Shown here piece by piece: positions 14,792 through 39,035 of a stretch of DNA of 64,000 nt. The notes beneath the pieces were generated by a model. That model had not been told where the DNA came from. It did no database searches and saw only the letters and a list, made by a program, of their open reading frames with translations. The DNA is from an uncultured virus (IMG/VR IMGVR_UViG_646564563_000001) (Duplodnaviria > Heunggongvirae > Uroviricota > Caudoviricetes): IMG/VR virus record IMGVR_UViG_646564563_000001; one strand, 5' to 3'. Position numbers and translations under genes: made by a program. Position 1 is the stretch's first letter; each line of letters opens with the position of its first letter.

Positions 14792-14844
14792 CTCTGGTCT
14801 TTCCGAACTAAGTGCAATCAAAGACCCGAAAGTCTCACCGATTT

Positions 14845-20154: not shown

Positions 20155-21678
20155 TCATTGTTCCTCCGTGGGCGGGTCGCGATCCGTCGCGTCCACGGCT
20201 TGCGCGAGACCGGCGCGGCTGACGCGGCGGGGATCAGCATCGAAAATCAGGCCCAGCTGATCGAAGAGGGCGGCGTACTTCTGCCATTCCTCGACGACTT
20301 CGCGCGGGTCGTAACCGCGGCGGGCGATCTGCTGGGCGGGGGTTGAGAAGCCCGCACGGACCTCCATCAGATCGGCCGTCACGTCCTGCAGCGGGTTCAC
20401 GCTTTCAAACCGGGGCGGGGCCCATTCGACGGCGATCTCGGGCTGGGGCAGGGCACCAGCCGTCCAGGCGGCCTCCATCACCCAATCCCAGATGCGCTGG
20501 CAGAACATCGGGATCACCACTTGCCACTGGACCGCTTCGACCATGCGCCGGAACTCGTGCAGGCCGACGCGCGAGGAGGCGAAGTTCACCTGTGACAGAT
20601 CGCCCGTCATCAGCTCGTAGGGCACGCGGAACCCGGCCGAGATGATGTGCTGCTGAACCTGGTTCCATTCGTAGATGCCCGAGGTGGAGGCGGGCGTGCT
20701 GAACTTGATGTCCTTGCCGTTGCGCACGTATCCGATCAGACCGGGTTCGAATTGTTCGATCCGGTTGCCGTCGGCATCCTGCACCACCGGCGCCATGGAT
20801 TGCTGATCCTCGTCGGCGCCGAAGACGAAGCCGACCATAGAGGCTTCGATCTTCTTGCGGACCAGTTCGGCGGTCTGCCAGTCGCCCAGTTCCCTGAGCG
20901 CCCGCATGGCGGGCACGCCCCAAGGCACGCCGCGGTTCTGCACGCGCTGGCGTTCGAAGAGGTGGGCGACGCCGTCTGCCCCGACCCTCAGCGATTCAAA
21001 CCGGCGCCCGAAGACCGGCATCGCATCGCCGGGATGGTCGGGGAACATCCAGTAGCCCCGGCGGCGGCCGAGCGCGTCGTATTCGATGCCCTGGACGATC
21101 CGGCCTCCGTCAGGCCGGTTGTCGAACTTGGCCCCATCGAGGTGATCGGCCTCGTTGAGCTGGATCTGCACTGGGGCTGCCAATCGGTCACTGGCCCGGC
21201 GGCGATGGCGCAGGGCAAAGACTTCGCCGCCTTCGATCATTTCGCGCACGGCCAGAGCGGTCAGGCCGTGGAAGTCGGTGTGCCCATCGGCATCGGCACG
21301 CGGCGCCCAGCGCTTCCAGAGATCATCGGCGAGCTTGTTCAGCGCCGGATCGGCCGCCGCGGCCCGGGGACGAATGCCGGTGCCGACGATGTTCGACACC
21401 AGAACCTGTACGGCCTTTGCGGCAAGCGGATCATTGCGGACCAGATCGCGCATGCGGTCGCGCAGGGCGCCACCCGCAACTGCGATTTCCGCGTCGGCCG
21501 CGGTGCTGCCTGCGCGCCAGCCATCCGTGCCGCGCCCGCGGGCGGCAGCATCGTAGCCCCGCCGAAGGTTGGCGATTGCCACCCGGGCGGCATAGCGCCG
21601 GGCGGCCGTGCGGGGCGCGACCGTCGCCACGATCCGATCGATCACGCCCCAGGGCACATCGGGCGGCGAGGGTTTCAT
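20155..21678 (-). CDS. Lambda-family portal protein
   Basis: LRDRMRDLVRN, QGIEYDALGRR, YELMTGDLSQVNFASSR. Confidence 0.95.
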   Translation of the reverse strand: MKPSPPDVPWGVIDRIVATVAPRTAARRYAARVAIANLRRGYDAAARGRGTDGWRAGSTAADAEIAVAGGALRDRMRDLVRNDPLAAKAVQVLVSNIVGTGIRPRAAAADPALNKLADDLWKRWAPRADADGHTDFHGLTALAVREMIEGGEVFALRHRRRASDRLAAPVQIQLNEADHLDGAKFDNRPDGGRIVQGIEYDALGRRRGYWMFPDHPGDAMPVFGRRFESLRVGADGVAHLFERQRVQNRGVPWGVPAMRALRELGDWQTAELVRKKIEASMVGFVFGADEDQQSMAPVVQDADGNRIEQFEPGLIGYVRNGKDIKFSTPASTSGIYEWNQVQQHIISAGFRVPYELMTGDLSQVNFASSRVGLHEFRRMVEAVQWQVVIPMFCQRIWDWVMEAAWTAGALPQPEIAVEWAPPRFESVNPLQDVTADLMEVRAGFSTPAQQIARRGYDPREVVEEWQKYAALFDQLGLIFDADPRRVSRAGLAQAVDATDRDPPTEEQ

Positions 21679-21884
21679 GTGCGGCCCCGGCTGAAGCTAG
21701 CCTTGCCCGCAACCGGCCGGGTATTGCCCGTGCCAGTTGCCATCTGCCCCTCGATGAAGCGGATGCGGGCCAGAAGATCGGCGGCATTCCCATAGGTCAG
21801 GCGGCGCCCATCGTATTCCACCACCAAGGCGCCTGCGGCATAGGCGCGGTGGAGCGCATCAAGTTCGGCTTGCGAGAAGGACAT
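21675..21884 (-). CDS. gpW-like head completion protein
   Basis: MSFSQAELDAL..AYAAG...VEYDGRRLTY. Confidence 0.85.
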   Translation of the reverse strand: MSFSQAELDALHRAYAAGALVVEYDGRRLTYGNAADLLARIRFIEGQMATGTGNTRPVAGKASFSRGRT

Positions 21885-23866
21885 CAGAGCCATTTTCCAC
21901 GTCGGGGCCCGAGCCAGCCGGTTGGGCGCTTCGGGGCAGATTGCGGTTGCGGCCGGTCGGGTTGACCGGCCGGGGTGGTTGCCGGGCGCGCAGGCCCGAT
22001 CTGTTCTTCCAGCGCTTCCCAGCGCGCGTTGTCCCAGCGATCGATCCCCATCAGCCAGGCGGCGGCGCGGGCATAGACCCGGCAGTCGAGGGCCTCGTTG
22101 CGTTCCCGGGTCTGTTCCCATTCGAGCTTCTGATAGCCGGTGCGGGTTTTGCGGGTGACGAGTTGTTCAGACGTCAGCTGCTTCACCCATTCGGCCGTGG
22201 TGCCCTTCGGGATATGCACAAAGCCTGCGGGCCAGTCGGCCCCGGCTGCCCGTTCCTCATCGGTCGGCGCGGCCAGGCGCAGGAAACGGTAGGTCTCGGC
22301 CTTGAAGACGGCACCCGCCACTTTCCAGAGCCGGACCCCGCGGCGGAGCTTTCGGCCGCCTTCAGTCGTTTCCACATAGGTGGGCCCGTCCACTGGCGTT
22401 GATCGATCAAACCCGGCCACGCCCTTGATGGCGATCACTTGTCCGTGCCCAGCTTGCCGGACCCAAGCATAAACCGCGTCGGTCGTGGCGCCGTCACCTG
22501 AGTCGATCGCCACCCGCGCCAGTGCCATCCGGGCGCCCGAAGCGTGTTCCCATGTCATGCCGAGGAACTCATTCAGATCGGCCCAAACCTCCGCCCGGGC
22601 GGTGTCGCCCTCAAGGACGACGTGATCGACGAGCCAAGAGCGAAGATTCCGTCCCCAACCCCAAACGTCGATCTCGATCCGGTCGCGCTGCACGTCGATC
22701 CCTGCCGTGAGGATCAGCACACCGACAGGCGCACGGCCCAACTGCCAATCCTCGCGCCGCTCATAGAGCCGCTGCCAGTCCGGCGCTTCGCCGCGCTCCG
22801 CCCAGGTTTCGCCGAGGACGGTGTTCTTGACGGTTTTCAGTGCGGAGTCGTTGCCTTGCGCCTGATCCCAGCGCCGGGCGATTTCTTCCCAGGACAACCA
22901 CCCGAGGGGCGAGTAGAGCCCCGAGATGTGGAACCCGATCACGCCTGCCATCTCAGCCGAAGCCTGCACATCGGGTGCAGCCGTCGGCAGCCAATCCGCC
23001 CCGTTCTCCTCGTCCATCATCCATGTTTTGTGCCGCTCGGCGATTGGCGCCTCGCAATGTTCGCAGAGATAGGCGGCGGTGTCCGGTCGCCCCTTTTCCC
23101 AGCGCAGCCGTTCGAACTTCAGCCATTGCAGCCCGCCGCAATGCGGGCAGGGGACGTGATAGCGGCGCTGGTCGGTCAATTCGAACTCCCGCTCGATCCG
23201 GCTGAGGCCCTTGATCGTGGGCGTCGAGGCCAGGAAGATTTTCTTGCGGTGGCCGAAGCTGTCGGTGCGGGCTTCAGCCAGCGCCACCGGATCGCCTTCC
23301 CCCTCAAGGTCGCCCGGATAGGCGTCGACCTCGTCCAGAAAGAGCCAGCGCGCGGGCATTGACCGCAGCCCCACGGCCGAGTTCGCGCCGGTCAGCACCA
23401 ACTGGCCGCTGGGGAAACGCTTGGCCAGCACCGTGTTTCCGGCGTCGCGCGACCGGGCGGGCAGGACGAGGGCCCGGAGGTCTGGGCTTTCCTCGATCAG
23501 GGGTTCGATCCGCTGCTGGCTGAGGCTCTTGGCCAGATCGGTCGTCGGTTGCACCGCCAAGATCGGCCCCGGCGCGCGGTGGATGCAGAAGCCGATCCAG
23601 TTATTTCCGGCCTCGGTAGCGCCGACCTGCGCCGACTTCATGAACACCACCCGCTGCGCCGGGTTGTTCGGCGACAGGGCCTCCATGATCGCCTTGAGGT
23701 AGGGCGTCCGGCTGGTGCGATAGGGTCCGGCCTCTGACGCTGCCCGCGACGACAGGATGCGGTGCCGGTCTGCCCATTCAGCCACGGTCTGCGCCGGATC
23801 GGGCGCCAGACCCCGTGCCCAGGCGACAGCGATATCCTCCGCCCCCTCGAAGCTAGCGAAGTTCAA
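21884..23866 (-). CDS. Terminase large subunit (lambda gpA family)
   Basis: KSAQVGATE, LFLDEVD, STPTIKG, CPHC/CEHC, GIDVQ, RNEALDC. Confidence 0.96.
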   Translation of the reverse strand: MNFASFEGAEDIAVAWARGLAPDPAQTVAEWADRHRILSSRAASEAGPYRTSRTPYLKAIMEALSPNNPAQRVVFMKSAQVGATEAGNNWIGFCIHRAPGPILAVQPTTDLAKSLSQQRIEPLIEESPDLRALVLPARSRDAGNTVLAKRFPSGQLVLTGANSAVGLRSMPARWLFLDEVDAYPGDLEGEGDPVALAEARTDSFGHRKKIFLASTPTIKGLSRIEREFELTDQRRYHVPCPHCGGLQWLKFERLRWEKGRPDTAAYLCEHCEAPIAERHKTWMMDEENGADWLPTAAPDVQASAEMAGVIGFHISGLYSPLGWLSWEEIARRWDQAQGNDSALKTVKNTVLGETWAERGEAPDWQRLYERREDWQLGRAPVGVLILTAGIDVQRDRIEIDVWGWGRNLRSWLVDHVVLEGDTARAEVWADLNEFLGMTWEHASGARMALARVAIDSGDGATTDAVYAWVRQAGHGQVIAIKGVAGFDRSTPVDGPTYVETTEGGRKLRRGVRLWKVAGAVFKAETYRFLRLAAPTDEERAAGADWPAGFVHIPKGTTAEWVKQLTSEQLVTRKTRTGYQKLEWEQTRERNEALDCRVYARAAAWLMGIDRWDNARWEALEEQIGPARPATTPAGQPDRPQPQSAPKRPTGWLGPRRGKWL

Positions 23867-24461
23867 CTTTGACCTCCGACATCTCCGCCAGATGGCGGCG
23901 CAGATAGCGCATCAGCACCTGCTCCACGGCATGCGGCTCGGCCCCGAGTTCGGCGGCGATGTCCGCGGCCACCCGCGGCGGCCAATTCAGCCAGGCGTCG
24001 CGTTCACGCCGTGCCAGATCGAACACCATCGCGGTGGCCCGGGCGCGATCGACGACCTCGCCCTTCATCTTCTGCAACCTCACCCGGGCGGTCTGCGCTT
24101 TCAGTACCTCATTCGCCATCCGGGCTTTAACGAAGGAGACCTCGCCTCCGTCACCCGCCGCCGCGCCCGGGTCGGCCCCGGCTTCGGTCAAGGTTTCCGC
24201 CACGGCTGCGAAGGCCTGCCGCGGCACGGCCTTGGTGCCCGCAACTATCCGGGTCGCCGCCGCCGTGCCCCGGCCCAGATCCCGGGCATGGGCGCCGCGT
24301 TGCTTCGCCGGATCGGTGGACGCATCCCACATCGCATCGGCCTTGGCGGCGTCGATCGTGCCATCGGCCTCCGTCGTGATCCGCCCGGTGGCGATGGCCT
24401 TGCGCACGGCGCTTTCATGCACCCCGCGCAAGGCGGCATAGGCGCGCCGCGACAGCCCCAT
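23853..24461 (-). CDS. Terminase small subunit (Nu1-like)
   Basis: HTH MGLSRRAYAALRGVHESAVRKAI; ERDAWLNWP; immediately upstream of terL. Confidence 0.8.
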   Translation of the reverse strand: MGLSRRAYAALRGVHESAVRKAIATGRITTEADGTIDAAKADAMWDASTDPAKQRGAHARDLGRGTAAATRIVAGTKAVPRQAFAAVAETLTEAGADPGAAAGDGGEVSFVKARMANEVLKAQTARVRLQKMKGEVVDRARATAMVFDLARRERDAWLNWPPRVAADIAAELGAEPHAVEQVLMRYLRRHLAEMSEVKVELR

Positions 24462-24552
24462 CTTGCGACATTCTCCAATTAAGGCAGTGATTTGGACTTG
24501 CTCTTCGGACGGTCTCGGCAATGTCTGCGACACCTTGAAACGGAGGTTTCCG

Positions 24553-24774
24553 ATGCCCGCCAAGACCGCCCTGATGACCGGCCATGAGGCCAATTGCCTG
24601 GCCGCCGCCGACCATTTCATCGCCTGCCGCGGGTCGAAACCCGCGACCCGCATCCGCGCCCGGTTTGACCGAATCGATCAGGCCGAAGCCTTCGCCGCGA
24701 CCTTCGGCGACAGCCGCACGATGATCTACGCCGTCACCGCCGAAGGCCGCTCGGCCCACATCAAGAACGCCTGA
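24553..24774 (+). CDS. Hypothetical protein
   Basis: GGAGG RBS before MPAKTA. Confidence 0.7.
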   Translation: MPAKTALMTGHEANCLAAADHFIACRGSKPATRIRARFDRIDQAEAFAATFGDSRTMIYAVTAEGRSAHIKNA

Positions 24775-26107: not shown

Positions 26108-26812
26108 CTATCCCCTCGCCAGCGGCGCCACGTTCCAGAACAGCACTCGCCCCGGCCCGCGCTTGGCAAGGCACAACTCCCAGGCCTTTGCGTCGTAGTG
26201 CGGATCGGCTGGGAAGGGCGCGGCCAGCGCCGCTCGATCGCTGAACTTGCGGGGATGGACGTGGATCGTGGCATCGGCCACCTCGCGCGGGGTGAGGTCG
26301 CGGCCGATCTGGACGACATGGCGGCGGGCTTTCGGCCATGCGGCGGCAAGGCCACGGGCGAGGACGCCGGACCCGGCGGCGCACCAGACCTCTTCGGGGT
26401 CAAAGGCTGCCAGACGGGCAGCAGCGGCGATTGCCTCGACGGCGCCGGGGATTTCGGCGCCAAAGGGGATCAGGCTGGCGCCGGTGTTGCGGCAGTATTC
26501 GCGGGCGCGCGATTGCACGACCGACAGATAGCCCGGGCTGATCGGCACCACTTTGGCGCCGAGGCGGGCGGCCTCAAGCGTCCGAGGATGCGGCCGGGTG
26601 CGGGCGGCGACGAAGATCGTGGCGCGTTTGCCGAGGCCCCGCGCCACCGTGGCGATTGCCGTCTGGGCGCCGCCCTCGGGCGGGCTGGCATAGACCGCCT
26701 CCTGCACCCCGTCGAAGACCTGCGCGATGAAGCGGGCCTTGGTGCCGCCCGGGAAGAGGTCGTCGCGGACAACGGCAATGCCATGGTGCATTTCAAGGAT
26801 CGGGGCGGTCAT
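26108..26812 (-). CDS. Minimal PLP-dependent enzyme (fold type II)
   Basis: RDDL..GGTKAR (Schiff-base Lys), GSG phosphate loop, YDAK, LFWNV. Confidence 0.8.
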   Translation of the reverse strand: MTAPILEMHHGIAVVRDDLFPGGTKARFIAQVFDGVQEAVYASPPEGGAQTAIATVARGLGKRATIFVAARTRPHPRTLEAARLGAKVVPISPGYLSVVQSRAREYCRNTGASLIPFGAEIPGAVEAIAAAARLAAFDPEEVWCAAGSGVLARGLAAAWPKARRHVVQIGRDLTPREVADATIHVHPRKFSDRAALAAPFPADPHYDAKAWELCLAKRGPGRVLFWNVAPLARG

Positions 26813-27783
26813 TGGTCGTCCTCCGGTTCGTCGTCGGTATCCGGCCCTTCGATCTCGCCGAACTCCACCGGCCCGCAGGCCTCGGTCGCCTTGCGGGGAT
26901 CGCCTTTGCGGAACACCAGCACGTTTTGGTGGGTCCGGCCGAGCTTGCGGGCGACGGTGAACTGGCGGCCGACACGGATCGGCAGCGAGCCAACGGCCGT
27001 GACGAGGATCGCGTCGTTGTAGAACCGTGCGCCCGCGGCCTCAAAGGCCTCGACCGTCAGGCCGGGCAGGTTGACGAAGAACCCATCGGTATCGCGCACA
27101 TCGCCGATCACCCAGACGGCGAAGCGGTTTGGCCGCAGGCGGGCGACGGCCTGGGCGATGATTTCGGCTTGGGCCTTCAGGAAGTCGGCCAGGGGCATGG
27201 TGGAAAGGTCCGAGGGGTCATCGGAATAGCGTTCGAGGTTCCAGTAGGGCGGGGAGCTGAACACCAGATCGGCCTCGATGCCAGCGGTCAGCCGGGCCAG
27301 ATCGCGGCTATCTCCGGCGATCCAGTGCGGGGCCGGGTCGCCCGCGAGATCGGCTTGCGCTTGGTTCGCGGCCACCTGTTCGGCGCGGAGTTCGATCCCG
27401 ACGTAGGGGCGGCCAAGGCGGGCGGCGACAATGCCGCGGACGGAACCGCCCGCGAAGGGGTCCAGGACGGTGCCACCCGGCGGGCAGAACCAGCGATAGG
27501 CGATTTCGCAAAGGACGGGATCGAAGATCGACGTTCCCGAGGCCGTTGGGGCGTCCGAGGCGGCGTAATGGTCGGCCAGGAATTCCTCGGTGGTCATTTC
27601 CCGGCCGAGTTCTGCCTCCTTGGCGCGCTTCTTGACGTAGAATGACGGGTCGCCAGAGGTGTGCGACGGCATCAGGACACCGCCATTCTGCGGGGTAGCC
27701 GATTGTGAGGCGGGCCCAGCGCCGACGACATGCTCGCCGCGCATCAGGTCCTGGCCGAACGTGCGGGCGGGGCCCTTAGCCAT
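26809..27783 (-). CDS. SAM-dependent DNA amino-methylase-fold protein
   Basis: SIFDPVLCE..YRWF, VLDPFAGGSVRG (motif I), GIEL, SPPY (motif IV); AAGGAGG RBS before MAKG. Confidence 0.85.
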   Translation of the reverse strand: MAKGPARTFGQDLMRGEHVVGAGPASQSATPQNGGVLMPSHTSGDPSFYVKKRAKEAELGREMTTEEFLADHYAASDAPTASGTSIFDPVLCEIAYRWFCPPGGTVLDPFAGGSVRGIVAARLGRPYVGIELRAEQVAANQAQADLAGDPAPHWIAGDSRDLARLTAGIEADLVFSSPPYWNLERYSDDPSDLSTMPLADFLKAQAEIIAQAVARLRPNRFAVWVIGDVRDTDGFFVNLPGLTVEAFEAAGARFYNDAILVTAVGSLPIRVGRQFTVARKLGRTHQNVLVFRKGDPRKATEACGPVEFGEIEGPDTDDEPEDDQ

Positions 27784-28552
27784 GAGCGGCCTCCTTCCGG
27801 GCACGCTTGCCCTCCTTGTGGCGATAGTGGTCGATGTCCTTGTGGATCGGGGCCGGGTCGGCGGTGCCCAAGCCGGGGACGGCGGGGAAGGACTTCTCGC
27901 CCGGCCAACCACGATCCAGCAGGCGGGGCGCACCGCCGGGGGCAGCGCCGCGGCCGAGTTCGGAGCGAATACCCAGATCCAGCCAGGCGCGCTTGCGATC
28001 CTGCCACCAGCCCTTGCGGGCCTCGAACACCGAGAAGGGCGGGATGCCGAAACGTTCGGCGAGGTTCGCCGACGGGGCGGGGGCAGCGGCGGCGCCGCCG
28101 GTGCTTTCGCCCTCGGCGTTGCCGTCACTTCCACCCATCCCGAACCCCTCGAACCCGGCCATGATTTCGTCGAGCTCCGTCTCGTCAAAGCCGATCAGGT
28201 CCAGATCGAAATCTGCCTCGCGCAGCGTCGCTAGTTCCGACCGCAAGAGGTCGTCGTCCCACCCGGCATTCTCGGCGATGCGGTTGTCGGCGATCACCAG
28301 CGCTCTGCGCTGGGCCTCGGTCAGATGGTCCAGCACGATCACCGGAACCTCGGTCAGGCCCAGCGCCTTGGCGGCCATCAGGCGGCCGTGGCCTGCGATG
28401 ATCACCTCGTCCTCGCCGATCAGGATCGGGTTGGTGAAGCCGAACTCGGCGATCGAAGCCGCGATCTGGGCGATTTGATCCTCGCTGTGGGTCCGAGCGT
28501 TGCGGATGTAGGGAACCAGCCGGTCAACCGAGAGCATGTCGATCTGAAGCAT
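27776..28552 (-). CDS. ParB/Srx-domain protein
   Basis: NARTHS..QI..IAASI.EFGFTNPIL, IIAGHGRL, IADNRIAE..GWD; C-terminal PPFSV...WQDRKRAW. Confidence 0.88.
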   Translation of the reverse strand: MLQIDMLSVDRLVPYIRNARTHSEDQIAQIAASIAEFGFTNPILIGEDEVIIAGHGRLMAAKALGLTEVPVIVLDHLTEAQRRALVIADNRIAENAGWDDDLLRSELATLREADFDLDLIGFDETELDEIMAGFEGFGMGGSDGNAEGESTGGAAAAPAPSANLAERFGIPPFSVFEARKGWWQDRKRAWLDLGIRSELGRGAAPGGAPRLLDRGWPGEKSFPAVPGLGTADPAPIHKDIDHYRHKEGKRARKEAAHG

Positions 28553-28601
28553 GGGGCGCGGGGCCTTTCGGAAGGGGCGGCCGGGCGGTGCGGCCTCAGG
28601 T

Positions 28602-28728
28602 GCGCACCCGCGCACCCAAGATGCGCACCCAAGGCGCGGACCCAGATTTTTGTTCTGTCACTAGCGGTTAGACGCGCCTAGGCCCCCCGCATACGCCTCC
28701 CTTCCGGGAGAACCTAACGCGGGGGGCC
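28602..28728 (-). other. Putative cos site (cosQ/cosN-like plus cosB-like repeats)
   Basis: Minus strand AGGTTCT..TATGC GGGGGGCCTAGG CGCG resembles lambda GGGTCCT..TTACG GGGCGGCGACCT CGCG; followed by GGGTGCGC repeats. Confidence 0.55.
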
Positions 28729-28812: not shown

Positions 28813-29334
28813 TTATGCGTCAAAACCCGGGAAAGTGTCGCGCCCGAAGTTCGACGGATCGGGCCGGTTGTCCTCGGTGTCCGCGCCGCTTTCGCGCGGG
28901 GTTGTGCGGGTGGTTGCGGTGAGGGGTTTTGCGCCCTTGCCTTTGCCCTTTGATTTGTCGAGCTTTTCCAGCTTCTTCGAGATGGTCAGAAGAGCGGCCA
29001 CCCAGCGGCGCCAGGCGGTAGACCGCACCACCCCGGCGCGAATGCAGACCTGCCGCCAGCGGGCACCCTCGGCCCGAAGCCAGACGATCCGCGCATCCTC
29101 GGGGTTCAGCATGAGGAGCCAGTCGAAGCATTCCTCCATCCGGCTGATGGCGGCGGCGCTGGGGATCACCCGCATCGGCCGCTCGGGCGTGTAGCCGTAG
29201 GCATGCTTGGCGTCATGCACCACCGGCGGCCACGAATTGCCATAGCCGCGGGGGCGGTCCTTCTCGGGCAGGTTCCTCAGGGTGTAGGCGGCTTCCTCGA
29301 GGCGATCCTCGATCTCGCGGGGCGTCAGGCGCAA
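28813..29334 (-). CDS. DUF6362-like HTH protein, probable late-gene regulator
   Basis: AAISRMEE...W, IVWLRAEG.RW..VC...G..RSTAWRRW; TTG start with AAGGAG RBS. Confidence 0.75.
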   Translation of the reverse strand: MRLTPREIEDRLEEAAYTLRNLPEKDRPRGYGNSWPPVVHDAKHAYGYTPERPMRVIPSAAAISRMEECFDWLLMLNPEDARIVWLRAEGARWRQVCIRAGVVRSTAWRRWVAALLTISKKLEKLDKSKGKGKGAKPLTATTRTTPRESGADTEDNRPDPSNFGRDTFPGFDA

Positions 29335-29363: not shown

Positions 29364-30329
29364 TCAGTAGATTTGATGGGCGCGCAGGGTGGCCTCACTC
29401 ACAAGGCCCGCCCGCAGCAGGGCATCGCGCTGGATGTTCGTGACGGCGCTGGTCGGCACGTAGGCGCCTGAGTTCAGCCAGGCGGCCAAGCGCGCCAACC
29501 GGTCCTCGGGGGTCGCGGTCTGGCTGCCGGGCGCAACGGCCGGGCCAGCGCCAGCTTCCCCAGCCCCTTGCAACCTTGCCGCCTGGGAAATCCGCTTGGC
29601 ATGGCGCGCCGCGATCGCCTGGCTGAAATACTCCCACGTTCGGATCGGGCTGCTCCGGGCTTTTGCGGTGCGGTCTGCGATCACTGGCAGGACGTCCAGT
29701 TCGAGGTCGTAGCCTGCCGCCAGCCAGGCGCCGATCGTCGCCGTCGTTCCGGTGATGGCTGCCCGCGCTGCTGGGGTCATGCCTTCGCCGCAAGCGGCAA
29801 GGCAGGCGGCCTCGGCTGCGTCCAGATCGGGGCCTTCGTCGGCGGCGTCAACCTCAACCCGGGCCTCGCGCGTCGCGCCCGCGTCACGCGCGGTAGTAAT
29901 TACTGGTTCTTTACTTACAAGGTTAGTGTCCAGATTCTGGACATGGCTTTTCGCAAAATCTGGACATGGCTTTTGCCCATTTCCATGTCTGGATTCTGGA
30001 CATGGGTCAGGCCGGTTTTCGGGGCCCAGCGGCAGTTCCGCCTGCGCCGAAAACTCCGGCTCGAAGGCCAGGAAGTACCGGGTTGATTGCCGCCGGTGGG
30101 CGCCCTCGGAGTGGCGCCGTTCGCGGCGGATGAGCCCGGCCTGTTCCAGCTTGTCGAGATGCACGTTCAGGCTGGAACGCGAGATTTCGGCATCGGCCGC
30201 CAACTGGTCCTGCGACGGGAAGCACCCGTAATCCGGGTTGTGCCGGTCGCAGAGATGCCAGAGGACGAGCTTGGTCGCAGGCGCCAGCCCGCGCTGCTGG
30301 ATCGCCCAGTTGGTGGCTCGATGGCTCAT
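29364..30329 (-). CDS. Replication initiator (HTH_36, lambda O-like)
   Basis: KLVLWHLCDRHN..GCFPSQDQLA..AEISRSS; internal iterons. Confidence 0.8.
   Translation of the reverse strand: MSHRATNWAIQQRGLAPATKLVLWHLCDRHNPDYGCFPSQDQLAADAEISRSSLNVHLDKLEQAGLIRRERRHSEGAHRRQSTRYFLAFEPEFSAQAELPLGPENRPDPCPESRHGNGQKPCPDFAKSHVQNLDTNLVSKEPVITTARDAGATREARVEVDAADEGPDLDAAEAACLAACGEGMTPAARAAITGTTATIGAWLAAGYDLELDVLPVIADRTAKARSSPIRTWEYFSQAIAARHAKRISQAARLQGAGEAGAGPAVAPGSQTATPEDRLARLAAWLNSGAYVPTSAVTNIQRDALLRAGLVSEATLRAHQIY
29894..30005. repeat. Putative replication origin: three TCTGGACATGG iterons plus AT-rich tract
   Basis: Copies at 29936, 29959, 29995; palindrome TGTCCAGA-T-TCTGGACA at 29927-29943. Confidence 0.7.
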
Positions 30330-31835: not shown

Positions 31836-33065
31836 ATGAAGGCAAAACTCTCTGAACGCGTTGTAAAGGCTGCCGAAGTCGGCAGCCGCAAGTACGTCCT
31901 GTTTGACGAAGACACCCCCGGCTTCGGGCTCTGCGTCTACACGACGGGGCGAAAGGGCTTCGTCCTGATCTATCGGATCGCGGGCCAGCAGAAGCGCTTC
32001 ACGATCGGCGTCTGGCCGACATGGTCGGTCACCGCCGCCCGGGATGAAGCGAAGCGCCTGATCCGTGAAATCGACCGCGGGGAAGACCCTCTCGACACTC
32101 GCAAGGCGGCCCGCGGTGCGCCGACGGTCAAGGAACTGGCCGAGCGGTTCATCGAAGAGCACCTGCCGAAGCTGGCCAAGACCAACGCTTCGGACCAGAA
32201 GAGCATGCTGGAAAAGCTGGTGCTGCCCGAATGGAAGAACCGGAAGGTGGCGGACATCACGCCCACGGACGTCGATCGCCTGCTGACCAAGATCGCGGCC
32301 GGGCGGGCGCGGCCGTCGAAGAAGAAGCCCACGCAGAAGCGCCGCAAAAAGCTGGCCCCGCCCAAGCCCACGCCGGTGCGCGCCAACAGGGCGGGTGAAA
32401 TGCTGCGCAAGATGTTCAACCTCGCCATGCTGTGGAAAATGCGCACCGACAATCCCGCCTTCGGTTTCCGGCGCCGCCCCGAGGTTGCCCGCGACCGGTT
32501 CCTATCTTTCGAGGAGATCGAACGCCTAGCCAACGCGCTGGCAGTCGACGAAGACCAGCGCGCCGCCAGCATCATCCGCCTCTGCATGCTGACCGGCGCC
32601 CGGCTGGGCGAGGTCCGCACCGCCACCTTCGACCAGTTCAACCTCGATCTGGCCATCTGGACCAAGCAGGCCGCTTACACAAAGCAGCGCCGCATCCACC
32701 GCGTGCCGATCTCGCACGAAGCCGTGGCGCTGATCCGCCTGCGCAGGGAAATCGTGCCGAAGGGCTGCCCGTTCCTCTTCCCCGGCGACGTACCCGACCA
32801 GCCCGTTGGCGATCCCAAGCGCTTCTGGCCGAAGATGCAGAAGGTCGCCCTGATCCCCGACGTGCGCATCCACGACCTGCGCCACACCTTCGCCTCGCTG
32901 CTGGTTTCCGGCGGCGCATCGCTGGAAATGATCGGCCGCCTCCTCGGCCACACCCAGATCGGCACCACCCAGCGCTACGCCCACCTGATCGACGCACCCC
33001 TGCGGGCGGGGGTCAACGCAGTGGGTGAGATGCTGAAGCCGCGGTTGAGGGTGGTGGGGGAGTAA
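31836..33065 (+). CDS. int: Tyrosine integrase with N-terminal arm-binding domain
   Basis: TGARLGE, HDLRHTFAS, LLGH, TQRY catalytic motifs. Confidence 0.96.
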   Translation: MKAKLSERVVKAAEVGSRKYVLFDEDTPGFGLCVYTTGRKGFVLIYRIAGQQKRFTIGVWPTWSVTAARDEAKRLIREIDRGEDPLDTRKAARGAPTVKELAERFIEEHLPKLAKTNASDQKSMLEKLVLPEWKNRKVADITPTDVDRLLTKIAAGRARPSKKKPTQKRRKKLAPPKPTPVRANRAGEMLRKMFNLAMLWKMRTDNPAFGFRRRPEVARDRFLSFEEIERLANALAVDEDQRAASIIRLCMLTGARLGEVRTATFDQFNLDLAIWTKQAAYTKQRRIHRVPISHEAVALIRLRREIVPKGCPFLFPGDVPDQPVGDPKRFWPKMQKVALIPDVRIHDLRHTFASLLVSGGASLEMIGRLLGHTQIGTTQRYAHLIDAPLRAGVNAVGEMLKPRLRVVGE

Positions 33066-33262
33066 GGTGCAGCCTGCAAGGTCGGCTGGCGGTAGCGCAG
33101 TCCGAATGGTTGTGGTTCAATGCCTTGCAGGCCGTGCAACCTCTTGTTGCGCGACGATTGTGCTGTAAAGGTTATCTGGCGAGGAATTTGCTCGGGGGTG
33201 CAGTGGGTGGGAGTGGGCAGGATTGATGAGACGTCATGCTCAGCCAAAGTTTTCGGCATAGC

Positions 33263-36200
33263 ATGAAATCGAACGAGTCAAATTTCGGATTTTTGCAATC
33301 CCACGAACCCCAGCTTTACAGGCTGGGGACACTAGCGGAGCGCTATTTTTCTGAAGACCCGAACACATGCAACATTAAGCTGCGACAGTTCTCGGAATTG
33401 GTGGCGCAGTTTACTGCGAGCAGATTGGGTCTTCCGATTGCACAATCGGACAACCTTGCCGACCTGCTTCGGTTACTAAAGATCGAGCGCAGCCTTCCAA
33501 AACAAGTCCTTGAGATACTCCACAGTTTGCGAATCGCCGGTAACCAGGCAGCGCATCAAAATACCGATGACCACTCAAGTGCCTTAAGCGGACTCAAGCT
33601 CGCGCGCCAATTGGCGATCTGGTATTTCAGAACATTTCACAAGCCCTCTGGTATTTTTGGTCCTTTCATTCCGCCAGAAAGGCCCAAGGACGTTTCAGAA
33701 TCGATCGTCTTGGAGCTGGAACGTTTAAAGGCGGAGTTGGAGGCCTCCCTCACTGAAGCCGATCAACTACGGGAAGCGGCAAGGCAGGCCGAAATTGAAA
33801 GGAAAAGCGCTGCAGATCGCGCCGAGCAGGAGCGAGTTGACCGCGAAACTTGGGAGAAGCTTGCGGAGGAAGCGGAGGAAGATCGCAGGGCCCTTTCCTC
33901 ACAGCTACAATCATTGCAAGTTCAGGCTTCCTCCAAGGACGCTCTAACGTTTGAGGCAGTCACCGAACTGGCTCGAGATGCTGCCAGCAAGATCAACCTG
34001 GACGAGGCAGACACACGGGTTCTTATCGATAAGCAATTGCGCGATGCAGGATGGGAGGCGGACACGAAACAACTTCGGTTCGCATCCGGTGCTCGCCCCA
34101 TGAAAGGCCGCAATCGCGCGATCAGTGAATGGCCAGCCGAAAGTGGACCGGCCGACTACGCACTCTTCTGCGGCATGGTCTTGGTGGGAACCGTGGAGGC
34201 AAAGCGGCAGAACAGAAATGTCATGGAGGTCTTGCGGCAGGCAGAACGGTACTCAGCGGGCTTCAAGCTGAATGAAGGTGAACTGGCACAAGGTGCTCCT
34301 TGGGCAGGTTTCAAAGCTCCCTTTGCGTTCTCGACAAACGGACGGCCCTACCTCAAGCAGGTTGAAACCTTGTCGGGCATCTGGCGGCGGGATTTGCGCG
34401 ATGCCAACAACCCTGCCGAAGTGCTTGTCGGATGGCCTTCACCTCGCGGGCTGCTTGAGCGGCTGACTGTGAATAAGTCCGCAGCGCACCATGACCTTGC
34501 ATCGCAGCCCTTCGACTTTGGGTTTCCGCTAAGACCATATCAACACAAGGCGATCGAGGCGGTTGAACAGGCATTGCTTGAGGATCGGCGGGCGATGCTC
34601 GTCGCTATGGCAACCGGAACGGGGAAGACAAAGCTCGCAATCGCTATGCTTTACCGGCTGATCGCCGCCAAGCGGTTCCGCCGCGTCTGCTTCGTTGTGG
34701 ATAGAAGCGCGTTGGGTGAGCAGACCGAGAGCGAGTTCACCACTACCAAAGTGGTCAACGGCAAGTCTTTTGCGGACATTTTTGGCCTCAAGGGGCTTGA
34801 TGACGTGGTCCCCGATGACGAAACCCGCATCCACATCTGCACGATCCAGGGGTTGGTCCGCCGAGTGCTGTATGCCGCTGATGAGGCTGATGCGCCCACA
34901 GTCGACCAGTATGATCTGATCGTGGTGGACGAATGCCATCGCGGGTATCTGCTCGACCGCGAAATGTCTGAGGGCGACATTACGTTTCGCAGCCAGGACG
35001 ACTACATCTCGAAGTACCGCCGAGTCCTCGAGTACTTCGATGCGGTAAAGATTGGCCTGACGGCCACACCAGCGCTACACACCACTGAAATCTTCGGTCT
35101 TCCAGTGTTCACTTATTCCTATCGCGAAGCAGTGGTTGACGGTTACCTTGTTGATCACGAACCGCCGGTGCGCATCGGAACGCTGTTGTCTGAGGGTGGT
35201 ATCCATTTCTCTCGTGACGACCAAGTTGATTTCATCCACCCAACAAGCGGAGCAATTCAACCCGCTACTTTGCCAGACGACATCGACTTCGAGGTTGACC
35301 AGTTCAACAAGAGCGTTATCACCGTCCCTTTCAATCGAGTAATCGCACAAGAGCTCACGAAGTTCATCGATCCAAGCTTGCCAGATAAGACGCTGGTCTT
35401 TGCTGTGTCCGACGCGCACGCGGATATCCTTGTGAACGAGTTGCGGGTCGCATTCCGTTCAGCATTTGGCGCGCTGCCTGATGCAACTGTGCAGAAGATC
35501 ACGGGGAAAGTCGACAAGGTCGGAAAGTTGATCCGATCGTTCCGCAACGATCCACTGCCTAAAGTGGCGGTGACAGTAGACCTCCTGACTACTGGGATCG
35601 ACGTCCCTCGGATCAGCAATCTGGTGTTCATGCGGCGCGTCAACAGCCGTATCCTTTACGAACAAATGCTTGGCCGTGCCACCCGGCTATGTCCAGAAAT
35701 CGACAAGGAGGCTTTTCGCATCTTCGACGCGGTGGACCTCTACGCTCATTTGCAAAACCTTACCGACATGCGGCCGGTGGCTGCGGACCCAAGCTTCACC
35801 CTCACAAAGCTGTTCGAAGAACTCAGCCAACGCGGCGACGTAGAACATAAAGAGCGTGTGCGTGAGCAGATCATCGTTCGCCTCCGACGCAAGCTGCGGC
35901 GCTTGTCGCCAGAGGCACGGGCTCGATTTGAAAAGGCTGCGGGTGAAACTCCGGAAGAAAGCCTGCAGCGTTTTATCTCTGGCGATGCCAGCGCGCTTGC
36001 AGAATGGGCGGCCGAGCGACCTTCTTTGGGCCCGATCCTTGACTGGACCTCGGAGGATGGCACTCCAAACTATATCCCGATCTCTGAACATCCTGATCAG
36101 GTAACGACCGTTTCACGCGGCTATGGTGCAGCAGACCGGCCCGAGGACTTTCTGGATGCTTTCGCCACTTTTGTCAGGTCCAACGTCAATACTATCGCTG

Positions 36201-36643
36201 CCCTGAAGATCGTCGTGCAGCGCCCCCAAGAGCTGACCCGCGAGGAACTGCGGCAATTGCGCCTTGAGCTGGACGCGGCGGGCTTCACCGATAGTAAGAT
36301 CAGACGCGCCTGGGCCGATGCCAACAACGTAGAAATCGCGGCCTCGATCATCGGTTATATCCGCCAAGCGGCGCTGGGTGATCCCCTCGTTCCCTATTCT
36401 GATCGCGTGCGGCATGCCGTGGATACGATCTTGCGCCAGCGGCAATGGACCGATGTGCAGCGAAAGTGGATTGACCGGATCGGGCGGCAGCTTGACCTTG
36501 AGACTATTGTGGATCGTGCGGCCTTCGATGCCGAGCCCTTCGCATCGCTAGGGGGTTGGTCTCGGATTGACCGCGTGTTTAATGGCGAACTGGCGCAAGT
36601 GGTTCGCGACCTTAACGAAAACATCTGGAAAGACGCAGGCTGA
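33263..36643 (+). CDS. hsdR: Type I restriction endonuclease subunit R (EcoKI-like)
   Basis: ADY..VEAK nuclease; ATGTGKT, DECHRGY, LTATP, QMLGRATR helicase motifs. Confidence 0.95.
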   Translation: MKSNESNFGFLQSHEPQLYRLGTLAERYFSEDPNTCNIKLRQFSELVAQFTASRLGLPIAQSDNLADLLRLLKIERSLPKQVLEILHSLRIAGNQAAHQNTDDHSSALSGLKLARQLAIWYFRTFHKPSGIFGPFIPPERPKDVSESIVLELERLKAELEASLTEADQLREAARQAEIERKSAADRAEQERVDRETWEKLAEEAEEDRRALSSQLQSLQVQASSKDALTFEAVTELARDAASKINLDEADTRVLIDKQLRDAGWEADTKQLRFASGARPMKGRNRAISEWPAESGPADYALFCGMVLVGTVEAKRQNRNVMEVLRQAERYSAGFKLNEGELAQGAPWAGFKAPFAFSTNGRPYLKQVETLSGIWRRDLRDANNPAEVLVGWPSPRGLLERLTVNKSAAHHDLASQPFDFGFPLRPYQHKAIEAVEQALLEDRRAMLVAMATGTGKTKLAIAMLYRLIAAKRFRRVCFVVDRSALGEQTESEFTTTKVVNGKSFADIFGLKGLDDVVPDDETRIHICTIQGLVRRVLYAADEADAPTVDQYDLIVVDECHRGYLLDREMSEGDITFRSQDDYISKYRRVLEYFDAVKIGLTATPALHTTEIFGLPVFTYSYREAVVDGYLVDHEPPVRIGTLLSEGGIHFSRDDQVDFIHPTSGAIQPATLPDDIDFEVDQFNKSVITVPFNRVIAQELTKFIDPSLPDKTLVFAVSDAHADILVNELRVAFRSAFGALPDATVQKITGKVDKVGKLIRSFRNDPLPKVAVTVDLLTTGIDVPRISNLVFMRRVNSRILYEQMLGRATRLCPEIDKEAFRIFDAVDLYAHLQNLTDMRPVAADPSFTLTKLFEELSQRGDVEHKERVREQIIVRLRRKLRRLSPEARARFEKAAGETPEESLQRFISGDASALAEWAAERPSLGPILDWTSEDGTPNYIPISEHPDQVTTVSRGYGAADRPEDFLDAFATFVRSNVNTIAALKIVVQRPQELTREELRQLRLELDAAGFTDSKIRRAWADANNVEIAASIIGYIRQAALGDPLVPYSDRVRHAVDTILRQRQWTDVQRKWIDRIGRQLDLETIVDRAAFDAEPFASLGGWSRIDRVFNGELAQVVRDLNENIWKDAG

Positions 36644-38112
36644 TGAACGGAACAAGGGCACGGGAAACCGTTCAGAAGCTTTGGAACGCAAGCAAGAGTT
36701 TGCAGGGCGGCGGCGTAAGCTACTACGAGTACGTCACGGAGCTGACCTACCTGCTGCTGCTGAAGATGCTGGAAGAGGTCAAGCGCAACGGGGTCAAGCT
36801 GGAGGAGCGCCTGCCGCCGAACCTGCGCTGGGGGGAGCTAAAGCGGCTTGAGGGCGAACAGCGCCTGATCCGCTACCGTGCGATGCTGCTGGAGCTGGGC
36901 ACCTCCGACAAGTTTAACTTCCCGCTCGTCAAACAGGTTTTCACTGATGCGAAAACCTCGCTGACCAAGGCCACGGCCCTCACCAGCCTTATAACCACCA
37001 TCGACACGGTCGACTGGTATGCGGCCGAAGAAGATGGCCTGGGTGACCTTTACGAGGGCTTGCTTGAACGCACCACATCTGAGCGCAAGTCCAAGGCGGG
37101 CCAGTATTTCACGCCCCGGCCGCTGATCGAAACCATCATCCATTTGATGAAGCCCAAGGTTGGGGAGGTTATCCAAGACCCCGCGGCGGGCACCGGTGGC
37201 TTTCTAATTGCCGCTCACCGCGCCATCATGCGCGATACAGACGACCTAACGACAGTTCCCAAGGACGTCGCCTTTGCCCAGCGGAACGGAAAGTACCAGG
37301 GCGCGGAACTAATTACAGGCACGCACCGGCTGAATACGATGAACTTGCTTTTGCATGGCATTGACCAGCCGATCGACCCGATTGATGCATTGACGTCGGA
37401 CGCCAAGAAGTTCGATCCCGCCGATCTGATCCTGACCAACCCGCCCTTCAACAAGTTCCCCGAAAGCGTGGCACGCGATGACTTCGTTATCACTGCAGAG
37501 GCCAGAAAGGGCCCGCTTCCCTTTGTCGAACACGTCATCCGGGGGCTGAAGGTTGGCGGGCGAGCCGCGATCGTCGTGCCCGACAACACCCTGTTCGAAG
37601 ACAGCATGGGCCGCGATCTGCGCAATTGGATGATGGACCTGTGCGATCTGCACACCATCCTGCGCCTACCGACCGGCATCTTCTACGCCCAGGGCGTCAA
37701 GACCAACGTGATCTTTCTGACCAAGAAGTCAGAGGAACGGGTCGGGGCGACCAAGGCGGTCTGGTTCTACGATCTGCGCGCACAGATGCCTAACTTCGGC
37801 AAGACCCGCACGCTGACGACCGCTGATTTCGAACCCTTCATTGCCGCCTATGGGGATGATCCCCACGGCAAATCGCCTCGCATCGACGAGGGCGAAGCCG
37901 GACGTTTCCGCAAGTTCACCCGAGACGAGATCTCCAAGCGTAATGACAACCTCGACGTCACTTGGCTGCGCGACGATGTCGAAGTCGTCGAAGAAGGGCT
38001 GACCGAACCTGACGACATCGCATCCGCGATCATAGGGCATCTGCGCGCCGCGCTCGAGGAGATCGAAGCCGTGGCCGACGAACTCGCCGAAGTGGCCGAG
38101 GCTGACGAATGA
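36643..38112 (+). CDS. hsdM: Type I modification methylase subunit M
   Basis: GQYFTPR, DPAAGTGGFL, NPPF, LRLPTGIFYAQGVKTN. Confidence 0.95.
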   Translation: MNGTRARETVQKLWNASKSLQGGGVSYYEYVTELTYLLLLKMLEEVKRNGVKLEERLPPNLRWGELKRLEGEQRLIRYRAMLLELGTSDKFNFPLVKQVFTDAKTSLTKATALTSLITTIDTVDWYAAEEDGLGDLYEGLLERTTSERKSKAGQYFTPRPLIETIIHLMKPKVGEVIQDPAAGTGGFLIAAHRAIMRDTDDLTTVPKDVAFAQRNGKYQGAELITGTHRLNTMNLLLHGIDQPIDPIDALTSDAKKFDPADLILTNPPFNKFPESVARDDFVITAEARKGPLPFVEHVIRGLKVGGRAAIVVPDNTLFEDSMGRDLRNWMMDLCDLHTILRLPTGIFYAQGVKTNVIFLTKKSEERVGATKAVWFYDLRAQMPNFGKTRTLTTADFEPFIAAYGDDPHGKSPRIDEGEAGRFRKFTRDEISKRNDNLDVTWLRDDVEVVEEGLTEPDDIASAIIGHLRAALEEIEAVADELAEVAEADE

Positions 38113-39035
38113 CCACCGCTGAAACCTTTGGCCGCACGATCCAGCTTTTCCTTGTCGACGGCACCCCCAACGGTCTGCGCAAGGCGACCATCCACGGCTG
38201 GACCGGTCTGATCTTTGTCGCGACAACCTCCACCTTCGGCGCTCTGACGTCCCGCAGGGAACTCGATCGCACCGGCATTAACCTGCTGGCGGGGCCCGAC
38301 CCAGAAAAAGAGGGCGGCACACGGGTCTACATCGGGTCAGCCAACAGTGTGCAGGAGCGGATCAGGCAAAGCGCCGTCCAGCGCGACTTCTGGGAAATCG
38401 CCATCGCCGTCACCACCAGCGACGATGACTTGTCGAAAGGCCATGTCGAATACCTCGAGGCTCGGCTGATCGAACTGGCCACCCAAGCCCAGCGCGTGGC
38501 CCTGGACAACGGGAACAACCCCGCAAGCCAGCGCAGACGGCTGCCCGAGGCCGATCAGGCGAACATGGAACAGTTCCTCGCCAATCTGAAAATCATGCTC
38601 CCCGTGATCGGGCTGGACCTGCTTAAACCGCAACCGCGCGCTGCGTCACTGGTTAGCACGCCGGTCGAACAGCGCACCTCGGGCGAGGTAAAGTTCGAGA
38701 TGCGCCACAAGACCGGCGTGCAGGCCACGGCGGTCGAAGAGGATGGCGAGTTCATCGTTCTGGAAGGCTCGCAGGCCTTGATCAACACCGGCCATGTCCA
38801 GCAAAGCTATGGCAGGCTGAAGAAAAGCCTTGTGGATCAGGGCATCCTTGTTCCGTCTGCCCCGAACATGCTGGTGTTTGCCAAGCCCCATGCGTTCAAC
38901 AGCCCTTCAGCGGCAGCGGCCGTAGTGCTGGATCGGAACAGCAACGGACGGATTGAGTGGAAGGTGCAGGGATCAAGGCAGAGCTACCACGAATGGCAGC
39001 AAGCGCGGATCGCTATTGACGGGGTGAGCGCATGA
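38109..39035 (+). CDS. GIY-YIG nuclease-like + DUF4357 protein
   Basis: TIQLFLVDG.P.G, GIN..YIG, YLEARLI, FNSPSAAAAVV....NGRIEWK. Confidence 0.85.
   Translation: MTTAETFGRTIQLFLVDGTPNGLRKATIHGWTGLIFVATTSTFGALTSRRELDRTGINLLAGPDPEKEGGTRVYIGSANSVQERIRQSAVQRDFWEIAIAVTTSDDDLSKGHVEYLEARLIELATQAQRVALDNGNNPASQRRRLPEADQANMEQFLANLKIMLPVIGLDLLKPQPRAASLVSTPVEQRTSGEVKFEMRHKTGVQATAVEEDGEFIVLEGSQALINTGHVQQSYGRLKKSLVDQGILVPSAPNMLVFAKPHAFNSPSAAAAVVLDRNSNGRIEWKVQGSRQSYHEWQQARIAIDGVSA

Follow-up and report, generated by a model that had tools for sequence, protein, structure and literature searches.

A prophage cassette that couples a ParB-type protein, an amino-methyltransferase-fold enzyme and a minimal PLP enzyme: a candidate pathway of DNA hypermodification

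What can a pyridoxal 5′-phosphate (PLP) enzyme find to do beside an enzyme that resembles a DNA methyltransferase (MTase)? The question is raised by a cassette of three minus-strand, translationally coupled genes located in a lambda-like prophage, upstream of its terminase genes. It lies in a 64,000-nucleotide stretch of DNA from an uncultured virus of the Caudoviricetes (IMG/VR record IMGVR_UViG_646564563_000001), and this whole stretch is called the window here. A methyl group offers no amine to a PLP enzyme. The answer put forward, tentatively and with slightly less than even confidence, is that the 3-amino-3-carboxypropyl (acp) arm of S-adenosylmethionine (SAM) is transferred to the N6 of adenine or the N4 of cytosine and is then decarboxylated on the DNA by the PLP enzyme, giving an aminopropyl base. 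The cassette is made up of the following genes:

28552..27776, minus strand: ParB-N (ParB/Srx) gene, 258 amino acids (aa); Pfam ParB_N, PHROG 15396
27783..26809, minus strand: SAM-dependent amino-MTase-fold gene, 324 aa; Pfam N6_N4_Mtase, PHROG 12517
26812..26108, minus strand: minimal fold-type-II PLP gene of the M6 gp52 family, 234 aa; PHROG 7093

The initial annotation of this DNA had described three overlapping genes for a ParB/Srx protein, an amino-MTase fold and a 234-aa fold-type-II PLP enzyme. This description was confirmed by the open reading frames (ORFs), by the Pfam and PHROG matches and by an AlphaFold (AF2) model, and all the motifs quoted with it were found in the translations (DPFAGGSVRG, SSPPY, VVRDDLFPGGTKAR, GSG, YDAK and LFWNV). 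The ParB and MTase ORFs span 27776..28615 and 26809..28188, respectively, and their starts were then refined. The ATG at 28552 is the likely start of the ParB gene, because the PHROG 15396 alignment begins at ORF residue 22. The true start of the MTase was placed at the ATG at 27783, since the PHROG 12517 alignment begins at ORF residue 136 and an AAGGAGG Shine-Dalgarno sequence precedes this ATG. The ParB and MTase genes overlap by 8 nucleotides (nt), with the TAA stop of ParB inside ATGGCTAA, and the MTase and PLP genes share 4 nt (ATGA), preceded by GGAGGA.

The PLP protein contains VVRDDLFPGGTKAR, a GGTK motif with the Schiff-base lysine (Lys25), a GSG phosphate loop and the C-terminal motif PFP..YDAKAW..LFWNV; GGNK is the lysine motif of 1-aminocyclopropane-1-carboxylate (ACC) deaminase. 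The protein looks catalytically competent, given that all 65 aligned homologues have Lys25, Gly23 and Gly149 unchanged. It missed the gathering score of Pfam PALP (PF00291) with 31.7 bits against 35, many of its homologues carry a precomputed PF00291 match, and it is about 90 residues shorter than the solved members of that family. The AF2 model was built from 65 homologues and reached a mean confidence (pLDDT) of 97.3. When it was compared with known structures by Foldseek, D-cysteine desulfhydrase (4d8u, E 3.5e-11) and an ACC-deaminase homologue (1j0a, TMq 0.77) were retrieved, the best TMq being 0.78. Judged by this model, the protein is a trimmed fold-type-II PLP enzyme of the Trp-synthase beta superfamily.

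The proposed likeness to ViI gp226 and M6 gp52 held up in these structure and profile comparisons. A phmmer search of the PLP protein against PDB sequences gave a chance-level match alone (E 0.19), and the profile of its family scored at most 28.6 bits on solved PLP enzymes. On one ORF of Pseudomonas phage M6 the same profile scored 67.8 bits, and this ORF was taken as gp52 because of its Lys36 (PMC8989533). Both proteins match PHROG 7093 (the window protein with 283 bits, E 3.9e-84; gp52 with 530 bits). They were aligned by BLASTP over 212 residues (E 2e-10), including the C-terminal PFP..YD.KAW..FWN motif. For gp226, hhalign with the PLP family gave a probability of just 68% (E 5e-5), and Lys25 is paired with Lys92, the lysine named for gp226 in PMC8989533. 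In that paper (Lee et al., NAR 2021/22), gp52 and gp226 are described as PLP-dependent decarboxylases of amino acids already attached to thymine in DNA, and gp226 was modelled on 1j0a.

The absence of the partners that these two enzymes have in thymidine hypermodification had also been noted initially, and it was reproduced: neither a 5-hydroxymethyluracil (5-hmU) DNA kinase nor an amino acid:DNA transferase (aGPT-Pplase) was found in the PHROG and Pfam scans of the prophage genes, several ORFs of which gave no match at all. Additionally, in the PHROG scans of this prophage, which is about 30 kb long, no other pathway for donating an amino acid was visible. The PLP family is basic, with a median isoelectric point (pI) of 9.1, 52 of 65 members above 8 and a value of 9.9 for the window protein, whereas the window ParB (pI 4.9) and MTase (pI 4.8) are acidic. 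This difference suggests an electrostatic docking of the PLP enzyme to its partners or to DNA.

The linkage between the PLP and MTase genes was analyzed in two sets of viral relatives. A scan for close PLP relatives retrieved 138, and among the best 80 the MTase adjoins the PLP gene in 79; the exception (L041) has just 191 nt upstream. Most of these 80 loci belong to syntenic phages, and therefore the co-occurrence there alone could be inheritance. The cassette was also observed on other backbones, with large terminase subunits just 29% identical in L001 and L083 and with strands opposite in L069. The second scan used a seven-sequence alignment, was ranked on a distant homologue and covered proteins with 38–46% identity to one of the PLP proteins (P0231); 73 of its 80 loci were analyzed, the seven already found being omitted. 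An MTase was present on the same strand within 4 kb of the PLP gene in 67 of the 73, as a separate gene in either order in 66 and fused in one. Among the six loci without an MTase, five have cut flanks and L323 alone has full ones.

Moreover, the two enzymes are found as fusions. In a survey of 30 chosen representative proteins, each of at least 324 aa, PALP and N6_N4_Mtase domains were combined in 15. At least three topologies were observed: the PLP domain inserted in the MTase, C-terminal (P0259, P0261, P0250) or N-terminal ahead of ParB (P0127). In R6L gp1, ZS04_7 and Pam4_70 it lies within the MTase between motifs II and III (GVDLREEQ..AN / WHTGDS). The other members of the set have an apparent fusion to DUF3102 (two proteins, P0178 and P0257) or to YunG PF24585 (four proteins, P0124, P0195, P0245 and P0264), or no recognised partner. 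A third lineage is represented by the mycobacteriophages AlanGrant and Vincenzo, where the gene for a PALP protein (40.6 bits) overlaps that of a ParB-MTase. This protein type belongs to PHROG 3650, its tblastn matches are mainly to ViI-like phages, and the AlanGrant protein matches Vi01 orf00226, which is ViI gp226, with E 3e-9 (tblastn).

The PLP gene is almost never found without the MTase, and the MTase is often found without the PLP gene, which is the pattern of a tailoring enzyme that works on the product of a core enzyme. It is very probable that the two act in one pathway. The module is widespread: the PLP query gathered 1266 protein clusters at 50% identity, and several hundred loci per MTase type were found in IMG/VR. 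Cultured phages that carry a module of this PLP type or of the SAM-decarboxylase type described below are R6L, ZS04, Pam4, Mae-JY30, AlanGrant/Vincenzo, ZRG1 and P2559S; R6L and ZS04 are Erythrobacter phages and Pam4 is a Pseudanabaena phage. The decarboxylase-free type is represented by Listeria phage B054 and Enterococcus phage phiFL3A.

The MTase-fold protein matches Pfam N6_N4_Mtase with 50.9 bits (cut-off 26.7) and PHROG 12517 with E 1.1e-149. Its motifs are DPFAGGSVRG (I), GIEL (II), IAGDSR (III) and SSPPYWNLERYSDD (IV), with I preceding IV, an order permuted relative to the solved beta-class enzymes. Against PDB sequences its profile retrieved TTHA0409 (2zie, E 3.7e-15) and also CcrM, an N4-cytosine MTase, M.PvuII and M.MboIIA; no known acp or aminopropyl transferase was among its 18 PDB sequence matches. 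Transferases that move these groups from SAM or decarboxylated SAM (dcSAM) are TYW2, Tsr3, TapT, CntL, BtaA and spermidine synthase. On the CcrM equivalog the window protein scored 25.1 bits, far under the NCBIfam cut-off of 830; its fused relative R6L gp1 is termed "CcrM-like" in PMC5463345, where it is listed only as a methylase.

Motif IV reads SSPPY in the window enzyme and its three nearest relatives and SCPPY in nearly all others, the dcSAM-linked clade described below included. A Cys just before PPY is unusual for amino-MTases, and SPPY is commoner among N4-cytosine enzymes. The target would be adenine N6 or cytosine N4, with SPPY in the window as against CPPY in most relatives; the adenine product of BCE_0392, a ParB-MTase of a Bacillus cereus prophage considered below, is the sole experimental hint.

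The ParB protein matches ParB_N with 30.3 bits (cut-off 26.3; ORF residues 25–101), and its ORF matches PHROG 15396 with E 9.7e-162. Its GxxR box reads AGHGRLMAA in the translation. The centromere-binding helix-turn-helix and the C-terminal dimerisation domain of partition ParB were not matched, the Pfam match covering the N-terminal domain alone. The PHROG matches and the fused relatives indicate that the remainder of the protein corresponds to the N-terminal extension of the MTase. Its C-terminal third holds the PPFSVFEARKGWWQDRKRAWLDLGIRSELGRG segment, which forms the N-terminal extension of the MTase module in fused relatives; in the fused gp1 of Erythrobacter phage R6L, the segment PPF..L.AR.GWW..RKRAWL.LGI.SE.GRG lies between the ParB domain and the MTase core. 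The fused ParB-MTase family, PHROG 498 (633 aa), covers residues 19–212 of the ParB ORF, its profile positions 29–205 falling on that ORF and 321–613 on the MTase ORF. From this correspondence, ParB and MTase appear to be two halves of one enzyme. The reading of the split as a frameshifted pseudogene of a fused ParB-MTase was rejected, since the ParB frame remains protein-like as far as the stop codon, the MTase starts from a Shine-Dalgarno sequence and an ATG of its own, and close relatives conserve the split.

Phage thymine dioxygenases need a ParB-N-type protein to act on double-stranded DNA, according to a recent report (PMC13229309, PNAS 2026). By analogy with these enzymes, the ParB protein of the cassette probably loads or activates the MTase-fold enzyme on duplex DNA.

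The cassette would constitute one post-replicative DNA-modification module, expressed with the late and packaging genes, and its place before the terminase suggests that it acts on DNA about to be packaged. The ParB-N protein would bring the enzyme to double-stranded DNA or activate it there, and would supply the N-terminal extension of the catalytic subunit. The amino-MTase-fold enzyme would bind intact SAM and alkylate an exocyclic amino group, adenine N6 or cytosine N4, by moving the acp arm with release of methylthioadenosine. The PLP enzyme would then link to the alpha-amine left free on the tethered amino acid, as a Schiff base, and decarboxylate this amino acid, so that a cationic 3-aminopropyl base would remain. 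The acp arm is proposed because those members of the PLP family that have been characterised require a free alpha-amino acid tethered to a base, and acp is the only such group that can be delivered from SAM. That the end product carries the amino-acid arm of SAM, as aminopropyl or as acp, is considered a little more probable than its contrary.

Further information on the role of this arm came from a sister clade. A tblastn search of the MTase against 50,697 phage records matched 27 of them, and in Croceibacter phage P2559S and Pseudomonas phage ZRG1 the gene overlapping the 3′ end of the ParB-MTase is annotated as S-adenosylmethionine decarboxylase. Both decarboxylases pass Pfam AdoMet_dc (70 and 83 bits, respectively; cut-off 25), and that of ZRG1 also passes the NCBI SAM-decarboxylase equivalog (86.1 bits against 75.65). 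A scan seeded with the MTases of these two phages retrieved 392 viral relatives, of which the best 80 (L175–L254) were examined. An AdoMet_dc homologue is located directly 3′ of the MTase in 74 of the 80 loci, and the other six lead straight into terminase genes. Pfam AdoMet_dc was passed by ten of the ten ORFs tested, and the 76 decarboxylases compared keep the pyruvoyl ESH site, HTxPE and the Cys. Examples on phage loci of this kind are L085:3407-5048 and L092:2341-4186.

In the MTases of the sister clade, FAGD(T/S)VFG and (I)CDDGQN take the place of the FAGGSVRG and GDSR seen in the window type. Because FAGD was part of one scan pattern, counting the motif in this set is to some extent circular; as an independent contrast, AdoMet_dc was present in 0 of 80 loci of the GGSVRG type and in 74 of 80 of the FAGD type. 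In a quick IQ-TREE tree, the decarboxylase-linked MTases formed a single branch (14 of 14 rows, support 99). The loss of an Arg and the gain of Asp residues in the putative cofactor pocket would be expected if the cofactor loses its carboxylate. These motifs covary with the type of decarboxylase, and the sister clade, coupled as it is to SAM decarboxylase, argues that the amino-acid arm of SAM matters. In this clade the order of steps would be reversed: a pyruvoyl SAM decarboxylase would make dcSAM, and the retuned GD(T/S)VFG enzyme would transfer the aminopropyl group. The PLP-linked enzymes retain the residues lost in the dcSAM-linked clade, which fits SAM binding first and decarboxylation after. 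Two convergent routes to the product, with SAM first and a gp52-like PLP enzyme on DNA in the window type and with SAM decarboxylase first and dcSAM as donor in the sister clade, are thus a serious possibility that stops somewhat short of being probable. The assignment of the decarboxylases as arginine decarboxylases or other paralogues was disfavoured by the equivalog pass of ZRG1 and by the covariation of the MTase motifs, and it may still be right for some members. The function of such phage "speD" genes may lie in DNA modification and not in the synthesis of polyamines.

A number of observations weigh against acp transfer. The solved relatives of the MTase profile, with 18 PDB matches, are all methyltransferases, and every MTase motif is canonical, including (S/C)PPY. 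When the 80 viral loci nearest to the window MTase were surveyed over a 3-kb neighbourhood, a PLP gene was present within 3 kb in 36, and 44 had neither PLP nor AdoMet_dc. The co-occurrence that had initially been proposed as a check was consequently obtained from one side only: it holds for the PLP gene, with 79 of 80 close and 67 of 73 distant loci and the fusions, and fails for the MTase in these 44 loci without a decarboxylase. Pfam detected no decarboxylase among the 65 ORFs downstream in the PLP-less loci, which include terminase subunits, second MTases, QueC-like proteins and DUF4406. PLP-linked and PLP-less MTases are identical in their catalytic and SAM motifs, and on the tree the two kinds alternate, the presence of PLP changing at least 14 times, with four of these changes forced by well-supported branches; the tree is a quick IQ-TREE tree with several phage rows on long branches. 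The Arg of GGSVRG, taken initially as compatible with altered chemistry, is present in all MTases of the GGSVRG type, with or without PLP, and no longer serves as such a mark. With the same motifs and this interleaving, the reaction of the MTase should be the same with or without PLP, and it may simply be methylation.

The same direction is indicated by three further observations. The inserted PLP domain of the fusions is bounded by long Pro/Ala/Glu-rich linkers at the loop between helix B and strand 3, and the fusion is therefore read as tethering and not as a composite active site. The pI of M6 gp52 is 6.45, and thus this protein is not basic. Finally, BCE_0392 (M.BceSVII) is reported as a promiscuous N6-methyladenine (m6A) MTase by SMRT (single-molecule, real-time) sequencing (PMC3526280). 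In PMC3459991, N6-methyldeoxyadenosine (m6dA) was detected for it by liquid chromatography–mass spectrometry with a weak antibody signal, protection was obtained against 0 of 28 restriction enzymes, and a tritiated-methyl SAM assay by another group was negative. BCE_0392 is a possible member of the family of the window MTase; the 27 phage records matched by the latter include no Bacillus phage.

In two PLP-less loci (L118:1780-2802 and L162:1363-2364), a protein of some 340 aa is encoded after the MTase; its matches, PP-loop, QueC-like or PAPS-reductase-like, are weak (22–26 bits, at threshold). An ATP-dependent enzyme acting on the carboxylate, if these matches are taken at face value, would fit an acp "handle".

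The alternative that survives best is that the cassette encodes an ordinary, probably low-specificity m6A or N4-methylcytosine MTase with its ParB protein, and that the PLP enzyme handles the cofactor and not the DNA. It could, for instance, break down S-adenosylhomocysteine (SAH) beside an enzyme that has to methylate the entire genome ahead of packaging. It draws on the canonical motifs and the solved relatives, on the PLP-less relatives with identical motifs in 44 of 80 loci, on the frequent gain or loss of PLP, and on the m6A made by BCE_0392 in the sources cited above. Under this alternative the PLP-less relatives would simply methylate, and under acp transfer they would leave an acp base. 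Nevertheless, the PLP enzyme groups with the DNA-adduct decarboxylases gp52 and gp226 and not with the known SAH- or SAM-degrading enzymes, the sister clade with its SAM decarboxylase and altered cofactor motifs is left unexplained, and hosts already clear SAH. This alternative is regarded as unlikely, albeit with appreciable weight.

A second alternative, rather improbable, is that the PLP enzyme stands in for SAM decarboxylase, so that dcSAM is made beside the enzyme and the aminopropyl group is moved directly, yielding the same product without an acp-DNA intermediate. The PLP gene does occupy the genomic position of AdoMet_dc in the sister clade, and the fusion or tethering of PLP and MTase would favour the hand-over of a small molecule. 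On the other hand, the PLP-linked MTases keep the Arg and Gly that are replaced in the dcSAM-linked clade and are indistinguishable from the PLP-less ones, which must use SAM. Moreover, the only PLP-family members with a characterised activity work on substrates tethered to DNA (PMC8989533). That the genes are neighbours without a common pathway, the PLP gene being an independent auxiliary or anti-defence gene (for SAM or amino-acid depletion, for instance) in a variable pre-terminase region of siphophages that does gather accessory genes, such as the second MTases, QueC-like proteins and DUF4406 at that spot in PLP-less loci, is highly improbable in view of the fusions in at least three topologies, with an insertion inside the MTase, and of the co-occurrence in 79 of 80 and 67 of 73 loci over differing phage backbones and gene orders.

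The source of the cassette is a lambda-like prophage of about 30 kb, that of a temperate siphophage. Its host is a bacterium of high GC content (about 0.67), and the nearest named source for the window PLP protein is a metagenome-assembled genome of Gemmobacter sp. (96% identity). The following features surround the cassette; for the last four, the assignment is from Pfam/PHROG scans:

28813..29334, minus strand: DUF6362 gene, directly upstream of the ParB gene; Pfam DUF6362, 122.4 bits
24786..25703, plus strand: conserved gene of unassigned function, 305 aa, between the PLP gene and the small terminase; PHROG 24512, E 1.6e-212
24653..23853, minus strand: small terminase subunit, 3′ of the cassette; PHROG 57
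23866..21884, minus strand: large terminase subunit of the lambda gpA type, 3′ of the cassette; Pfam GpA_ATPase and GpA_nuclease
20155..21678: portal
from about 4348: tail genes
29364..30329: O-like replication initiator
31836..33065: integrase

The DUF6362 gene is also located upstream of ParB in syntenic IMG/VR relatives, and its product may be a regulator, going by a weak HTH_23 match. Homologues of the 24786..25703 gene are present at the equivalent place in relatives, in many of which the C-terminal half alone is conserved. Just past the integrase, a region of lower GC (0.57–0.59) was observed on the plus strand (window 33236-39035) with genes for three proteins, one helicase-like (1135 aa, PHROG 16694/16), one MTase-like (489 aa, PHROG 2713/13671) and one of 308 aa (PHROG 12629); the region may be an island of the defence or restriction type. 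GC also falls to 0.564 at 14001-16000, in the tail/head region of the prophage.

A full-text search, covering literature outside subscription journals and supplements, retrieved no paper in which a ParB-MTase is described together with a PLP enzyme or a SAM decarboxylase. In phage records the PLP gene is labelled "DNA modification methylase", "threonine dehydratase" or "nucleoside deaminase". The components are thus known families, their combination is new, and the predicted chemistry would be new for DNA. To our knowledge, the known phage DNA hypermodifications start from 5-hydroxymethylpyrimidines, from deazaguanines or from acylation of the Mom type. If acp transfer is correct, an acp or aminopropyl group derived from SAM on A or C would represent a new class of chemistry: DNA would for the first time have an aminoalkyl hypermodification that comes from SAM, and for the first time an MTase-fold enzyme would hypermodify the amino group of a purine or of cytosine. 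The modification would be found in hundreds of phage and prophage lineages, in Alpha- and Gammaproteobacteria, Bacteroidota and Actinobacteria and in cyanobacterial phages. Tethered cations would be expected to block restriction enzymes, possibly also Cas nucleases, and to ease DNA packaging. Such a module of two or three genes would need no modified nucleotide pool, and therefore could easily be moved to other organisms. It would also lead to a reinterpretation of phage "speD", usually seen as an auxiliary metabolic gene for polyamines, and of "threonine dehydratase", the usual label of the PLP family.

Compared with known systems, the PLP enzyme is closest to M6 gp52 and ViI gp226, with which it has in common the stripped-down fold-type-II fold and the aligned Schiff-base lysine, and with gp52 also PHROG 7093 and the C-terminal motif. 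It differs in being shorter (234 aa, against 278 aa for gp52 and 424 aa for gp226) and basic, and its partners are a ParB protein and an amino-MTase-fold SAM enzyme, at times fused to the PLP domain in relatives. In contrast to the thymidine pathway, no 5-hmU, 5-hmU DNA kinase, aGPT-Pplase or radical-SAM isomerase was found for the window system in the PHROG scans.

The MTase-fold enzyme resembles the PF01555 MTases (TTHA0409, 2zie; CcrM, 6pbd; M.PvuII, 1boo; M.MboIIA, 1g60) in its Rossmann SAM fold, in motifs I–IV and in the (S/C)PPY loop. It differs from them in its permuted order, with I before IV, and in a motif I that reads GGSVRG and not GSGTT. The prophage ParB-MTase M.BceSVII (BCE_0392) is alike in having a ParB-N partner and a place beside terminase genes. 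Unlike both M.BceSVII and the PF01555 MTases, the window MTase is split from its ParB part and coupled to a decarboxylase. With TYW2, Tsr3, TapT, CntL, BtaA and spermidine synthase it would share the proposed chemistry, in which an MTase-fold enzyme directs a nucleophile to the C-gamma of SAM or dcSAM; no sequence relationship to them was found, and their substrates are RNA, lipids and small molecules, not DNA. The window enzyme may therefore work like an acp or aminopropyl transferase without being a member of those families.

The phage thymine dioxygenases are alike in using a ParB-N-type partner for a DNA-modifying enzyme on double-stranded DNA; they are Fe/2-oxoglutarate dioxygenases with another modification, whereas the window cassette has a SAM enzyme. 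The sister clade of ZRG1 and P2559S has the same domain architecture, the same motif IV (FSCPPYxDLEVYSD) and the same place before the terminase, and in both types the MTase gene overlaps at its 3′ end with that of the decarboxylase. By contrast, its decarboxylase is a pyruvoyl AdoMet_dc and not a PLP enzyme, and its motifs I and III are altered (G to D, R to F and GDSR to DDGQ); this G and this R are residues 113 and 116 of the 324-aa window protein. It occupies a separate branch of the tree, to which the window enzyme, with FAGGSVRG and a PLP gene, does not belong.

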